DNA of 64,000 nt from Escherichia coli (GTDB lineage: Bacteria; Pseudomonadota; Gammaproteobacteria; Enterobacterales; Enterobacteriaceae). The notes beneath the pieces are model-generated. The model had not been told where the DNA came from. It saw only the letters and a list, made by a program, of their open reading frames with translations, and searched no databases. The position numbers and the translations under genes are program-made. Numbering within the stretch: position 1 is the stretch's first letter; each line of letters starts with the position of its first letter. Shown here in pieces: positions 58,355-64,000 of this stretch. The DNA is taken from the NCBI RefSeq assembly GCF_029227855.1, contig NZ_CP074356.1. One strand, 5' to 3'.

Positions 58355-58690
58355 CAGAAGCGATCCTCTTATGAGATGTAGGGTGACATGGCGATGCTCA
58401 TTTCGTAGCCATAATCTAAAAATATCTACATTTCTGAAAAATGCGCACAAATGCGCCATATTGTTTTCTTATTGTGATCAAAAGCAACAAATTGGTAACA
58501 TTTAACGTAGGGTATTAAGGCAAAGTGAGACTGGAAATGAATAACTAAAGCAACAGGTTAGGGGGGGATTACCATCAGAGAACAGATTATCTGGTCGATA
58601 AAAAACGGTAAATGGCTTCACTGCAAAATGACCGTTAGTAAACTAAACATATTATCTGCCCCGTTTTAGCGGGGCAGATATAACATTAAA

Positions 58691-60943
58691 TTACAAATAG
58701 AGATAGTTCGGCGGTTCTCCAGTTTTCCCTAAAAGAAGAGCGCTACGCCCAGGAATATTGATATTTAGAGTTCCGCCTCTAAGCGTAAATGCTTTACCAG
58801 GGGGGATAATTTTTCGGGTATTATTAATAATAATGTTAACGCTATTACTCCCCATGTTTTTATATATTCCAGGTTGCAATTTGTTAGGCCAGGTACCTTC
58901 AACTTCTTCGTTTCCTTTATTTATTATAACTAGTCCATCATGAGGAGAGTGATTAATATTCACAGAATCCCCACGACTAAAGGCCAGAACGTTTTTAGTT
59001 GCAAATACACCCTCAAATGCGCTCCATATTCCTGCTTTATCTATATATAATGCGTGGAATTCATTGTAGAGCTGCTGATAGGTAGAGCAACCTTTATTAA
59101 GCCACGCCTCACCGCCGACACGAGTGGACCCATCATCATTTTTAATCTCAGTCGTTGATTTTAATACCTGACCATCCCAGTAAACTAAAGGCCTGCTGAA
59201 CGGGAGAGCGGCCATATATGCCATTGCTAATTGTTCATCTTGCGGATGGTTAAATAAAAAGTCATTGAAAAGATTACCATTGTTAGGGAAATCGTGGTTG
59301 ATGTTAATCAATATCCGTCTTTCTGATGGGATGCTTGAGATTGTGGAGCCCGGTTTTGATGCAAGGGCTTGGAGATCTCCACCGAATGAAAAGGCTTTTA
59401 TCGTCTTCATGAGCAATGAAAAATCAATGGCGCTTAAATCATCTCTTTCATAAAGCAGCGATGACATTTGTTGTTCATCTAACGGACAAGTTACCAGGTA
59501 TTCCATGTAATTCATAACAGCTTTTTTTTGATATTTTGGATTAAATAAATTTGTATTGTGCAACCGCTCATTATAATTTTTAAGCGGTGGGGTTATCGAC
59601 CTCTCTATTTGTTCATGTTTTGAGTGTTTTGCTGCATCATAACGTAAACCTCGTACGCCATATTTTCGCATTTCACGAACGTATTGATTTTGCAACATAA
59701 TAACCTGGTCACTTTTGGGTGTTGTTTTAGGCATTCCATTTAAACGCTTTTCTTTTAATGCATGGAGGTTTTCCCATTCATCCTTAGAAATATTATCTTT
59801 ACTTGCTTCGAAGTCTTTTGCAGTGAGATGTATATCTTCTGGATGGATTTGGTCACGTTCTTTTGTTACTGGATCTATAATAAAGGGAATCAAGACCTGA
59901 CCTTGCCAATAGCCAGGGATACCACTTTCTATATCTTTACTGATCTTCGCTCGTATATCGGCAAAGGGATAATCCAGATCATTTTTACCACTACCCCCGA
60001 TTCCCATAAAGTTAAATGTATAATCAGGGATGATATCGATACCAAATTTTTTGGCATCTTTAACCAATGCGATAAAATCCTGCAAATCTCCCATTGGATT
60101 ATGGATAGTACAAAGATCTTCGGGTTGATAAGCGTGAAACCAGTAACCTTTTTCTTCTTCGGGAGTTTCTGGTCCGTCGGCGCGGAAAGTGGTTACGGGA
60201 GGGATTTGTATATACCCATAATGACAACGTGCAAACTCAGATATATTTTTCCTGATTTGCTGATAGGTGGCATTAAAAGCATGAAGAATCGCTTCGCCAG
60301 GTTTTTTGGGGGTGATGATTTCACATTGTGATTTCTGAACAGCAGTAAGAGATTTACGCTCAAGTGTTTGCCGTAGATGTTCTGGATTGATTAGTATTTT
60401 AAATGTTTCTTGCTGTCCGGAAGGTGACGTCACGTTAATATTATATACATCGGCTGCTAGCTCATAGTCAGGAATGTTAATAGCATATGCAACATACTTA
60501 TCTTTTGGGGACGGTTTGTCAGATGTAATGTGAGTGAAATGTTCAGCTGGACCATACTGATGAACACCGCTGTTATCACCTCTTTCAACCATTGTATCTC
60601 GTTGATAAACCCATGTTTTTCCTTCTCCTATCCTGTCTGGCGCTGTAATGCTACGCTGTGCAGCTTTATTCAGCTCTCGGTAAGTTGTATCTGGAGAAAG
60701 GGAAATTTTATAATCGTTTTTTAACAGATCATTAATAACTTTTTCTGCGTGAAAAGTTGATATAATTTCTCTGTCTTTTAAATCCTGAGGATAAACTCCA
60801 CAAGAATTAATAATACTTGTTATACAGTTTAGATATTCTAATGTATTTAATTTGGAATTTAGATCCCCGTCAGTAATGTTCCATGATAACAATGTGGGGT
60901 TGCCGATAGGTAAATTTCTTGGTCCTGGTTTTATAGAAAACAT
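58691..60943 (-). CDS. ygaQ: Large hypothetical protein with alpha-amylase-superfamily (GH13-like) motifs; ygaQ-like, intact
   Basis: 750-aa ORF in AT-rich DNA; GVRGLRYDAAKH resembles GH13 region II and ININHD region IV; N-terminal ~280 aa unassigned; position matches ygaQ next to csiD. Confidence 0.65.
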   Translation of the reverse strand: MFSIKPGPRNLPIGNPTLLSWNITDGDLNSKLNTLEYLNCITSIINSCGVYPQDLKDREIISTFHAEKVINDLLKNDYKISLSPDTTYRELNKAAQRSITAPDRIGEGKTWVYQRDTMVERGDNSGVHQYGPAEHFTHITSDKPSPKDKYVAYAINIPDYELAADVYNINVTSPSGQQETFKILINPEHLRQTLERKSLTAVQKSQCEIITPKKPGEAILHAFNATYQQIRKNISEFARCHYGYIQIPPVTTFRADGPETPEEEKGYWFHAYQPEDLCTIHNPMGDLQDFIALVKDAKKFGIDIIPDYTFNFMGIGGSGKNDLDYPFADIRAKISKDIESGIPGYWQGQVLIPFIIDPVTKERDQIHPEDIHLTAKDFEASKDNISKDEWENLHALKEKRLNGMPKTTPKSDQVIMLQNQYVREMRKYGVRGLRYDAAKHSKHEQIERSITPPLKNYNERLHNTNLFNPKYQKKAVMNYMEYLVTCPLDEQQMSSLLYERDDLSAIDFSLLMKTIKAFSFGGDLQALASKPGSTISSIPSERRILININHDFPNNGNLFNDFLFNHPQDEQLAMAYMAALPFSRPLVYWDGQVLKSTTEIKNDDGSTRVGGEAWLNKGCSTYQQLYNEFHALYIDKAGIWSAFEGVFATKNVLAFSRGDSVNINHSPHDGLVIINKGNEEVEGTWPNKLQPGIYKNMGSNSVNIIINNTRKIIPPGKAFTLRGGTLNINIPGRSALLLGKTGEPPNYLYL

Positions 60944-61501
60944 AATAAAGTTCCTCTAATGGTAGAGTAATATGGTGTATACGGAAACATAAAAATGTTT
61001 AATTGTTGTGAAAGTAATTGCAAACAGATGTCCTACTTTTATCCAATATTTATATGGAAAAGGATAATGCTTAAATCTGTTTTTTTAATTATCGATGTGG
61101 TCTGGAGAGGCAACTGTCAAAAATCGCTCATACGAAACTAATGATTAGCAGAATAAGATCTATGAAAGAATATATTGCTATATGAAGTTTATTTTTATGG
61201 CGTGAAAAGTAACAGATATCATAATGATGCGAAAACTCTTCAGTTAATGTAATAAAGTTATATTATTAGATACAAAATCATTACAAACTATCATTGAATC
61301 GATGGTAACTATAAATAGTGCTAAGTATTAGCATTTGCTTGTTGACTGAGAGTATCGTCTTTGTGAATGGAAGCGGTGTCGGGTTTTATGTCGCAGGTAA
61401 TGACGACCCAGGATGAATGAGAACGCATAAAAATCTGTTATTTACATCATAAGATCATCATGTTTATTGCGTGGTATATAAGTATTGTTATTGCATACTC
61501 A

Positions 61502-62334: not shown

Positions 62335-63789
62335 ATGTTAGTTAGTAAAAGCAACGAAATTAACACTAGCACATTTATAAATAGTGGAAATTGTAATGAA
62401 AGAAAATCTTCTAAATCCATGGAGTTACTAGCTTATAGTATTATAAAATTAATTTGTAAAGAAGCTGCCTCAGGGACGTATAACGGTGCTCTTGAAATTT
62501 TACAAAAAATGATGTCTGAATGTAAACATCATGAAGGCAATGCCTTTGTCATTATGGGAGCCGGAGAACAATTAAAACGTATTAAATATGATGCTAATGA
62601 AAATAAATTAAAAGTATACAACGTACACTTTGATAATAATCAAGAGTTAGTTGCTGATGGTGAGCCTGACGTAGTATTTTTAAAAAAAACGGTGTGGGAA
62701 GATCTTCTCATTAAACTAAAGCTGGAGAACAAAGAAAATGCGGTTTCTGAAACTGACATGTCATCTAATAAAAATAATGTTGATCAGTTTATTGAATGCG
62801 CTAAGAGAAATGAACAGACCCTATTCGGCAATATAAGAAAAAGTGATTTTCATGTTGCTTCACTTCAGCCAGGTAGAACGCGTAGTGTTATTTCAGAAAC
62901 GCCGCCAAATGACTGTATGGAATCACATAATTTATATGAAAACCACACAGATAAGGTTTCAACTGTAACTAAAAATTCTCAGCAAGTTAAAGGTCACTAT
63001 GGAGATAAGTTGAAAGAAATGCAGTTGTTCCTCAACCAGATGAGCAATGCACTTCAACAGGATTCATCTTTGTTAGAGTCAAAGGAACACACCATAGATA
63101 TTCAAGAAAAAACGAATAAGTTTGTGCAGCATTTTCAGCGGGTATTATTTGATAAAAATGGAAGGTCATCAGAGTTTCTACTTAATTTTTATGAGTGTTG
63201 CTATCAGTTTTTACCAAGAGCGCAGCCTCAAGATAAAATCGATAGCTATAATTCAGCACTGCAAGCTTTTTCCATCTTTTGTTCATCTACGTTGATACAT
63301 AATAATGTAGGGTTTAATTTCAAATTATTTCCAGAAGTCAAGTTGTCTGGAGGAGAGCTTGAAACGGTATTCAAATACAAAAATGGCAATTTTGTCTGGG
63401 AGATAGCCAGAATTAAAATTGCTCTCCCAAAAGAAGAGGGTGGTTTATATAATTTACGTGGATTGGATTTTAAGGGATGCTTCTTTTCTGGACAGAACTT
63501 CAGTAACTATGATATTCAATATGTGAACTGGGGAACGTCATTGTTTGATGTTGATACTCCGTGTATTTTTAATGTGCCTGATGACAATAAGAGTTATGAT
63601 AAATTATTAAAATCCGTCAGCGAAAATGGTTTAAATGGAGTCTTGACTGATCGTAATAATAAAATAAAACTAATCACGGGCGTGGCACCATTCGATGGTA
63701 TTTCATCTATGGATGATGATTTTGATGATAGTTCCTCTGAGGAAAATTCCCCTGAGGATAGTCCCATTGAGAATCGTCCCCTTGTATAA
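62335..63789 (+). CDS. Hypothetical protein, AT-rich, with short pentapeptide-repeat-like run and acidic C-terminal tail (possibly ypjC-like)
   Basis: 484-aa ORF; run NLRGL-DFKGC-FFSGQ-NFSNY-DIQYV-NWGTS; C-terminus MDDDFDDSSSEENSPEDSPIENRPLV; downstream of tRNA-Ile2. Confidence 0.55.
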   Translation: MLVSKSNEINTSTFINSGNCNERKSSKSMELLAYSIIKLICKEAASGTYNGALEILQKMMSECKHHEGNAFVIMGAGEQLKRIKYDANENKLKVYNVHFDNNQELVADGEPDVVFLKKTVWEDLLIKLKLENKENAVSETDMSSNKNNVDQFIECAKRNEQTLFGNIRKSDFHVASLQPGRTRSVISETPPNDCMESHNLYENHTDKVSTVTKNSQQVKGHYGDKLKEMQLFLNQMSNALQQDSSLLESKEHTIDIQEKTNKFVQHFQRVLFDKNGRSSEFLLNFYECCYQFLPRAQPQDKIDSYNSALQAFSIFCSSTLIHNNVGFNFKLFPEVKLSGGELETVFKYKNGNFVWEIARIKIALPKEEGGLYNLRGLDFKGCFFSGQNFSNYDIQYVNWGTSLFDVDTPCIFNVPDDNKSYDKLLKSVSENGLNGVLTDRNNKIKLITGVAPFDGISSMDDDFDDSSSEENSPEDSPIENRPLV

Positions 63790-64000
63790 AGTTCTAAAAG
63801 CAGTTTTCAATGATAAATAAATGGCTATTTTTACGAAGAGATAATAACGTAGATTGAAACAATATGTATTATTGATTAAGTAAATGGGGTTATTCTTCAC
63901 ACTACATCCATTTTAGTGTCACTACCAAAGAAAAAGGGGCTACGTTTTCATGTAACCCCTTGATTTATTTGGTGGGCTAGCAGTGACTGAATTGGTGCTG

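Follow-up and report, generated by a model that had tools for sequence, protein, structure and literature searches.

The AT-rich ygaQ–ileY–ypjCB region between glaH and ssrA of Escherichia coli: gene content, boundaries and probable origin at a tmRNA hotspot

At its right-hand end, a 64,000-nucleotide stretch of Escherichia coli DNA (contig NZ_CP074356.1, referred to as the window) runs into AT-rich DNA that carries the alpha-amylase-like gene ygaQ, the tRNA gene ileY and the orphan gene ypjCB, between glaH and the transfer-messenger RNA (tmRNA) gene ssrA. The original prediction, made from the letters of the window alone, described an AT-rich accessory block flanking a tRNA-Ile(CAU) gene and suspected a genomic island integrated at that tRNA. 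Comparison with a strain having an empty site, together with a public record, shows that positions 58554–64000 are the proximal half of an accessory block, a 10.75-kb segment that ends at about 69307. The content beyond 64000 was read from the record of strain JNEC-KY178, which over window positions 56455–64000 differs at only 2 of 7546 positions (59964 and 62681). The segment is, with good probability, an old and immobile patchwork between glaH and ssrA, accreted at the ssrA hotspot and inherited vertically, in which ileY is a resident and not the point of entry.

Composition and gene content of the segment

GC content drops from about 0.55 to 0.28–0.43 at approximately 58.35 kb, and at 200-bp resolution the fall is located between 58300 and 58460. 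In 1-kb bins, the last six kilobases (58001–64000) have GC values of 0.433, 0.390, 0.370, 0.372, 0.324 and 0.352, whereas the 58 bins upstream lie mostly between 0.47 and 0.59, the three lowest being 0.390, 0.434 and 0.447. The two large open reading frames (ORFs) of the block are equally distinct. The ygaQ frame (58691–60943, minus strand, 750 aa) has a GC content at third codon positions (GC3) of 0.31, 26.7 ATA codons per 1000 and a codon-adaptation index of 0.50, and the ypjCB frame (62335–63789, plus strand, 484 aa) has 0.29, 14.5 per 1000 and 0.53, against 0.49–0.71, 0–10.7 per 1000 and 0.61–0.80 in 30 other large ORFs of the window, whose own large ORFs served as the reference set for the index. 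Binned GC, GC3 and ATA load thus bear out the predicted AT-rich stretch with two large ORFs of unknown function, and its proposed foreign composition also stands, given that both sliding GC and codon adaptation differ from those of the core genes. Two long non-coding spacers flank the tRNA as described (60944–61502 and 61579–62334). The start proposed for the block, 58460, was only partly right: the AT-rich drop near this position is real, but the accessory DNA starts at 58554. According to the RefSeq annotation of the near-identical record, glaH begins at 58354 and not at 58459, and the interval 58355–58553 is the AT-rich upstream/promoter region of glaH (csiD), core DNA outside the accessory block that aligns at 89% with the block-less strain E14033.

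The ygaQ-type gene is intact, is preceded by a GAGGAA ribosome-binding site and encodes a divergent member of the GH13 (alpha-amylase) family. Pfam recognizes the domains Alpha-amylase and Alpha-amylase_C, profile matches to solved alpha-amylases reach a best E value of 1e-34 (PDB), and a structural model with a mean predicted local distance difference test score (pLDDT) of 56 is placed by Foldseek on B. subtilis-type amylases with probability 1.0 and a target-normalised template modelling (TM) score of 0.65. Like the GH13 alpha-amylases of B. subtilis and Pseudoalteromonas haloplanktis (PDB 1bag/1ua7 and 1aqh), YgaQ has a (beta/alpha)8 barrel, a C-terminal beta domain and the catalytic Asp/Glu/Asp; D436, E481 and D551, as well as R434, K439, H440 and H550, are invariant in the amylase alignment and fall in regions II, III and IV. 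It departs from these two enzymes in its low identity (16–18%), in a unique extension of about 215 aa at the N terminus, in having no signal peptide and in a region I phenylalanine: the histidine of the DxxxNH motif was not found, the Escherichia proteins and a metagenome homologue having N-F instead of N-H. A ratio of nonsynonymous to synonymous substitution rates (dN/dS) of 0.09 indicates strong purifying selection and a gene that is functional in the species, though it is a pseudogene in K-12, and its product is predicted to be a catalytically competent GH13 glycosidase.

The YgaQ family consists of Escherichia proteins plus one protein from a gut metagenome (contig ERZ983566 k127_9647), which has 824 aa and 34% identity. 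The latter has neighbours of a virulence type, which encode InvH, a leucine-rich repeat protein, regulators resembling FidL and MarT, an EAL protein and a giant protein of the invasin/intimin kind. A plasmid-borne YgaQ was considered and discarded: the three full-length E. coli matches are records of 4.8–4.9 Mb, apparently chromosomes filed as plasmids, and a fourth match, on a 14-kb record, covers only 35% of YgaQ.

The tRNA gene, ileY (tRNA-Ile2, anticodon CAU; 61503–61578, plus strand), was located by ARAGORN, RefSeq and comparison with K-12. ARAGORN labels it Met and RefSeq annotates it as tRNA-Ile; together with the RefSeq annotation, identity with K-12 ileY at 74 of 76 positions upholds the predicted tRNA-Ile(CAU). 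Both differences (G28A and T43C) are in the anticodon stem, giving a G27-C43 pair plus an A28·C42 mismatch (window positions 61530 and 61545), where K-12 has G27·U43 and G28-C42 and E. albertii has Watson-Crick pairs at both places. This exact allele occurs in 185 of the 5426 complete E. coli genomes that formed the prevalence sample, and its mismatch might affect the conversion of C34 to lysidine by TilS or the charging with Ile. An exact-pattern scan for ileY in one genome per species gave no matches, the likely cause being that the genome representing E. coli has no block and that the tRNA of E. albertii has another sequence.

The ypjCB gene is likewise intact and encodes a protein with the domains DUF5507 and DUF5508 (Pfam) that matches the NCBIfam model Ecoli_YpjCB with 930 bits. 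At position 62681 the window has T and JNEC-KY178 has A, which turns Leu116 (TTA) into a stop codon and splits the gene in the annotation of that strain. Homologue searches found ypjCB only in E. coli and Shigella, and a full-library phmmer search for remote homologues of the protein returned solely E. coli-type clusters; two giant low-complexity adhesins that also matched were set aside as compositional artefacts. Searches of PDB and PADLOC gave no match, the PHROG match is to a family of unknown function, and the AlphaFold2 model (mean pLDDT 35) is unusable for fold comparison. A 494-aa neighbour of the metagenomic YgaQ homologue, examined as a possible analogue, has no similarity to YpjCB. 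Within E. coli the alleles share 79–94% protein identity, with a dN/dS of 0.73 between intact alleles (0.73–0.88 when the comparison with K-12 is included) and values above 1 in two 60-codon segments. Given the 164 nucleotide differences between alleles, the frame stays open in only 0.3% of random-mutation replicates, suggesting that the frame is selected while the sequence changes fast and that ypjCB may be a selectively maintained, rapidly evolving orphan.

In JNEC-KY178, ypjCB is followed by a 147-bp pinH-type recombinase fragment, a small hypothetical ORF and the 4.6-kb autotransporter gene ypjA/ehaD, and then by ssrA, smpB and a long series of core genes. The predicted continuation past 64000 is therefore real, with its end at about 69307. 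The interval from glaH to ssrA has no annotated integrase and no annotated phage structural genes in this record, the 147-bp fragment of a serine (Pin-type) recombinase being the only trace of the kind. The region has a full counterpart in K-12 MG1655, namely ygaQ (b4462, pseudogene)–ileY (b2652)–ypjC/ypjB (b2650/b2649)–pinH'–ypjA (b2647), with the same gene order, orientation, spacer lengths and flanks (glaH and ssrA) and with a nucleotide identity of 94–96% over the block and 87–90% in ypjCB. Whereas K-12 has a ygaQ pseudogene and a split ypjCB with a deletion of about 100 bp, both genes are intact here; the cryptic prophage CP4-57, inserted at ssrA in K-12, is absent, and ypjA lies 160 bp from ssrA. 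From these alignments the AT-rich stretch is recognizable as the already known and annotated K-12-type ygaQ–ileY–ypjCB–ypjA region and, as such, an ordinary feature.

Boundaries, distribution and attachment sites

In strain APEC E14033, which has no block, the distance from glaH to ssrA is about 680 bp. Alignment with this strain places the junctions at 58553/58554 and 69307/69308 (window numbering, continued past its end). The proximal bound is on the glaH side and the distal one is in the DNA downstream of ssrA, 10 bp beyond the ypjA stop codon and 150 bp from ssrA. The place of the block is taken in E14033 by 333 bp of unrelated DNA (16554–16886 of its compared stretch).

The empty-site arrangement occurs in 1104 of the 5426 genomes (∼20%), and the 333-bp filler was seen in these 1104 genomes only. 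Any match to ygaQ was found in 4101 genomes, a match with at least 80% coverage in 3367, ileY in 2969 and the ileY–ypjCB segment in 3013–3177. In some genomes ygaQ is cut short by IS3 and a prophage, and in strains W and B ileY has been lost through insertion sequence (IS) elements (PMC3032704). Since the block is absent from the 1104 empty-site genomes and truncated in many others, it is not core everywhere, and its accessory status was rightly predicted.

A fossil attachment junction is found just inside the window end (63908–63980, plus strand). Its first 68 bp (63908–63975) share 91% identity with the attP region annotated in phage Fels-2, and also match RE2010, SopEPhi and related P2-family phages; in strain S1, sequence matching these 68 bp forms the link between the 3' end of ssrA and a P2-like prophage, which it joins at the ogr end. 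In the window they are followed by TTGGTGG-GCT, corresponding to the last ∼10 nt of ssrA, and then by unrelated DNA. A plain ssrA repeat at this place was tried and rejected, as BLAST against the strain's own ssrA gave none and most of the sequence is phage attP. The arrangement is best read as the remains of an earlier phage/ssrA junction, pushed away from ssrA by the later insertions of pinH' and ypjA, and it points to ssrA, and not ileY, as the historic integration site. The scar is internal to a block that ends 150 bp from ssrA, and it is not an intact att pair.

The block resembles elements that target tRNA or tmRNA genes, such as CP4-57 and Fels-2/SopEPhi at ssrA or the ter and sugar-utilisation islands at ileY, in its anomalous composition, in adjoining both ssrA and a tRNA gene, and in containing a Fels-2-type attP scar, an ssrA-terminus fragment and a recombinase fragment. 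Unlike them, it lacks an integrase and intact direct repeats, neither of its junctions coincides with the 3' end of an RNA gene, and it is immobile and old. A live element at ileY is provided for contrast by strain APEC-O117H42, in which the match to the window breaks inside the tRNA beside a tyrosine integrase and the 3' half of the tRNA is duplicated; this island measures at least 20 kb, its far end being outside the stretch compared. The tRNA between ypjC and ygaQ has also been listed as an insertion site of ter elements (PMC8193136).

Age and origin of the block

E. albertii carries, between ssrA and glaH, a tRNA(CAU) gene and, divergently arranged to it, a gene for a YgaQ homologue of 60% identity, in a segment that is AT-rich too and contains no ypjCB. 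In E. albertii CP117650, the gap between ssrA and the ileY homologue (7828–8793 of the compared stretch) holds ykgR and the L31 and L36 paralogues (ykgM/ykgO type), which occupy the place of ypjCB and ypjA. Against K-12, the synonymous divergence (dS) is 0.152 for ygaQ, 0.137 for ypjCB and 0.139 for ypjA (dN/dS 0.09, 0.88 and 0.22, respectively), compared to 0.125 for lhgO and 0.250 for glaH in the flanking core (dN/dS 0.08 and 0.02). The dS of the block matches that of its flanks, indicating that the block diverged along with them and is an old resident and not a recent arrival. The flanking genes lhgO and glaH (56089–58354) are themselves only ∼95–96% identical to K-12 (dS 0.12–0.25), a divergence that looks deep for E. 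coli and points to allelic lineages of long standing or to recombination around this locus.

Taken together, these comparisons favour the following history. The segment would be a patchwork built up at the ssrA integration hotspot that has since lost all mobility functions. A divergent ygaQ–ileY pair and the conserved non-coding elements that go with it presumably occupied the site before E. coli and E. albertii separated, and ypjCB, the Fels-2-type attachment scar, the Pin-invertase fragment and ypjA/ehaD would have been added on the E. coli side only. Afterwards the block would have been inherited vertically with its flanks, being lost as a whole in about one fifth of E. coli and truncated by IS elements or prophages in others.

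Several points weigh against this history. The order of events at the locus is reconstructed. The right junction is 150 bp downstream of ssrA rather than at its 3' end, and this position, with the unrelated 333 bp of the 'empty' genomes, speaks for replacement or deletion rather than for a clean insertion at the ssrA site. Given that ygaQ occurs in two species only, E. coli and E. albertii may conceivably have gained it independently at this one site. In our own assessment, this strain and K-12 seem to differ by a dS that is high for E. coli, and equal dS in block and flanks could mean that the region was co-transferred by homologous recombination, not strictly inherited by descent. Finally, control of the block by H-NS and Hha in this strain is put forward from its composition and the K-12 literature.

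Three other explanations were considered. An island integrated in the 3' end of tRNA-Ile(CAU), with its integrase and distal repeat beyond 64000, as originally predicted, would fit AT-rich, accessory DNA adjoining a tRNA; in some strains ileY does serve as an att site, for ter-carrying islands among others (PMC8193136), and a lone 45-nt copy of the tRNA 3' half exists in some genomes. The integrase, repeat and junction that it calls for are missing at this locus, however. The sequence past 64000 holds no integrase up to ssrA. The terminal 30 nt of the tRNA, allowing up to 3 mismatches, have a single occurrence in the window and a single one in the 49-kb extended locus, and shorter words from the same end likewise have no second copy in either, so the expected direct repeat is missing. 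The tRNA has AT-rich DNA to its left and right, the spacer between ileY and ypjCB is practically as long as in K-12, and the presence/absence junctions are far from the tRNA (3 kb and 7.7 kb), which places ileY about 3 kb inside a block running from 58554 to ∼69307. Barring a misassembly of the public record, this explanation is already refuted for the present genome, and we give it next to no credence. A decayed Fels-2/P2-like prophage once resident at ssrA, of which the block, or at least ypjCB, would be the cargo end, everything else having been deleted except for 68 bp of the ogr-side end, has three points in its favour: the attP-like fossil, 118 bp downstream of the ypjCB gene, is placed and oriented as ogr is in a real lysogen, a Pin-type invertase fragment follows just past it, and YpjCB is a member of a PHROG family. 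Yet that membership could stem from a prophage-boundary call in a bacterial genome, the 50,697 phage records contain no YpjCB homologue, neither the ileY–ypjCB spacer nor the surroundings of the fossil showed further phage similarity, and E. albertii has ygaQ–ileY with neither ypjCB nor scar, making a prophage remnant of this kind unlikely.

The remaining explanation is that the block was never acquired horizontally, being ancestral enterobacterial AT-rich DNA whose empty state arose by deletion. This would account for the equal dS of block and flanks, the counterpart in E. albertii and the strong purifying selection on ygaQ, and the 150 bp kept beside ssrA and the unrelated 333-bp filler of the empty-site genomes are compatible with a secondary deletion. 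Against it, the low GC3 (about 0.30) and the load of rare codons are well outside the host range, relatives of YgaQ were found in E. albertii only (100,044 species scanned, one genome each), the same scan having picked up no syntenic ygaQ–ileY in Salmonella, Citrobacter or further Escherichia species, YpjCB is limited to E. coli and Shigella, and the block contains a phage att scar and a recombinase fragment, so that a purely ancestral origin seems very improbable. An old, immobile patchwork accreted beside ssrA is therefore the reading that we retain.

Non-coding elements, proposed silencing and significance

Two non-coding sequences around ileY stand out by their conservation. About 100 nt downstream of the tRNA lies a structured element of ∼150 nt (61678–61831, plus strand), composed of a long hairpin (61678–61762), a GC hairpin (61771–61792) and an invariant 46-nt stretch. 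Amid a diverged spacer, its conservation between E. coli and E. albertii is ∼90% and exceeds that of the neighbouring YgaQ protein, and on the plus strand it has a minimum free energy of -59.6 kcal/mol (z = -4.3). Pairing in the long hairpin is retained in 98.8% of cells on the plus strand versus 82% on the minus strand; all six E. coli alleles pair perfectly on the plus strand, through G·U changes, against 22–27 of 32 pairs on the minus strand. Twelve pairs of this hairpin vary one-sidedly and none is broken; double-sided compensatory changes were not observed in it. In a terminator scan the GC hairpin is a canonical terminator on the minus strand only. The element has no annotation in K-12 and no Rfam match above threshold (the best, a chance match to a microRNA model, scores 24.5 bits against a gathering threshold of 53), and a literature search for a small RNA (sRNA) near ileY found none.

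We tentatively entertain the possibility that this element is an undescribed functional RNA, either a structured 3' trailer of ileY or a short minus-strand sRNA. As a trailer, it may serve as a processing or termination signal or as a regulatory 'sponge' of the 3' external transcribed spacer (3'ETS) type; as an sRNA, it may be a minus-strand transcript ending at the 61771–61792 terminator. Two other candidates were rejected at this place. A 41-codon ORF over the element is open in both species, but 10 of its 11 differing codons are non-synonymous, and a sigma-54 promoter at TGGCACGCCACTGCA inside the hairpin, noted by inspection by eye, has a GG–GC spacing that is one base short.

The second conserved sequence (61109–61185) is upstream of ygaQ and near-invariant between E. 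coli and E. albertii, the surrounding spacer being diverged. It contains, on the ygaQ strand, the motif ATGAGCGATTTTT (61113–61143), and this copy is invariant in E. albertii. A further copy is located on the plus strand at 62248–62278, 57–87 bp upstream of ypjCB, within a promoter-like TTGTCT-16-TATAGT. The two copies form an inverted repeat, having the same orientation relative to ygaQ and ypjCB, and their exact 13-nt match was reached by 2 of 300 shuffles. The motif may be a shared operator or promoter element of both genes.

In K-12, both spacers around ileY contain RpoD promoters and carry an HNS flag (PMC3946193), Hha binds ileY and ypjC (PMC2408971), and ygaQ, which has a spurious intragenic promoter, has served as an example of a horizontally acquired gene under H-NS silencing (PMC7229825). 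The block resembles the H-NS/Hha-silenced xenogeneic DNA of Enterobacteriaceae in being rich in AT and rare codons and in having intragenic and spacer promoters, and differs from other such DNA in that the constraint on ygaQ is as strong as that on a core gene. By analogy, H-NS and Hha on the AT-rich DNA would keep ygaQ, ypjCB and ypjA largely silent, and ileY, expressed from its own promoter, would act as a second gene for the AUA-decoding tRNA; AUA shows a several-fold enrichment in the genes of the block itself.

Elsewhere in the window, the lowest GC dips are at 48001–49000 (0.390), 42001–43000 (0.434) and 4001–5000 (0.447). By synteny with annotated genomes, the first is probably the alaE–stpA intergenic region, likewise flagged as an H-NS site in K-12 (PMC3946193). 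A tRNA cluster at 28841–29606 consists of Ser-GCU followed by four Arg-ACG genes; the overlapping antisense tRNA-Arg(TCG) called by ARAGORN at 28957–29028 is most likely an artefact.

As a whole, the region is already annotated in K-12 and serves as a model of H-NS-silenced DNA, and it opens no new question. Smaller leads are the element trailing ileY; ygaQ, a pseudogene in K-12 but an intact GH13 gene conserved like a core gene in many strains, with an odd active-site region I and a unique N-terminal domain; and the orphan ypjCB, whose maintained frame and near-neutral rate form a pattern typical of proteins in antagonistic interactions. The main value of the analysis is a correction of how the locus is read: the tRNA would be a passenger, the block immobile and ancient, and the true hotspot the neighbouring tmRNA gene.

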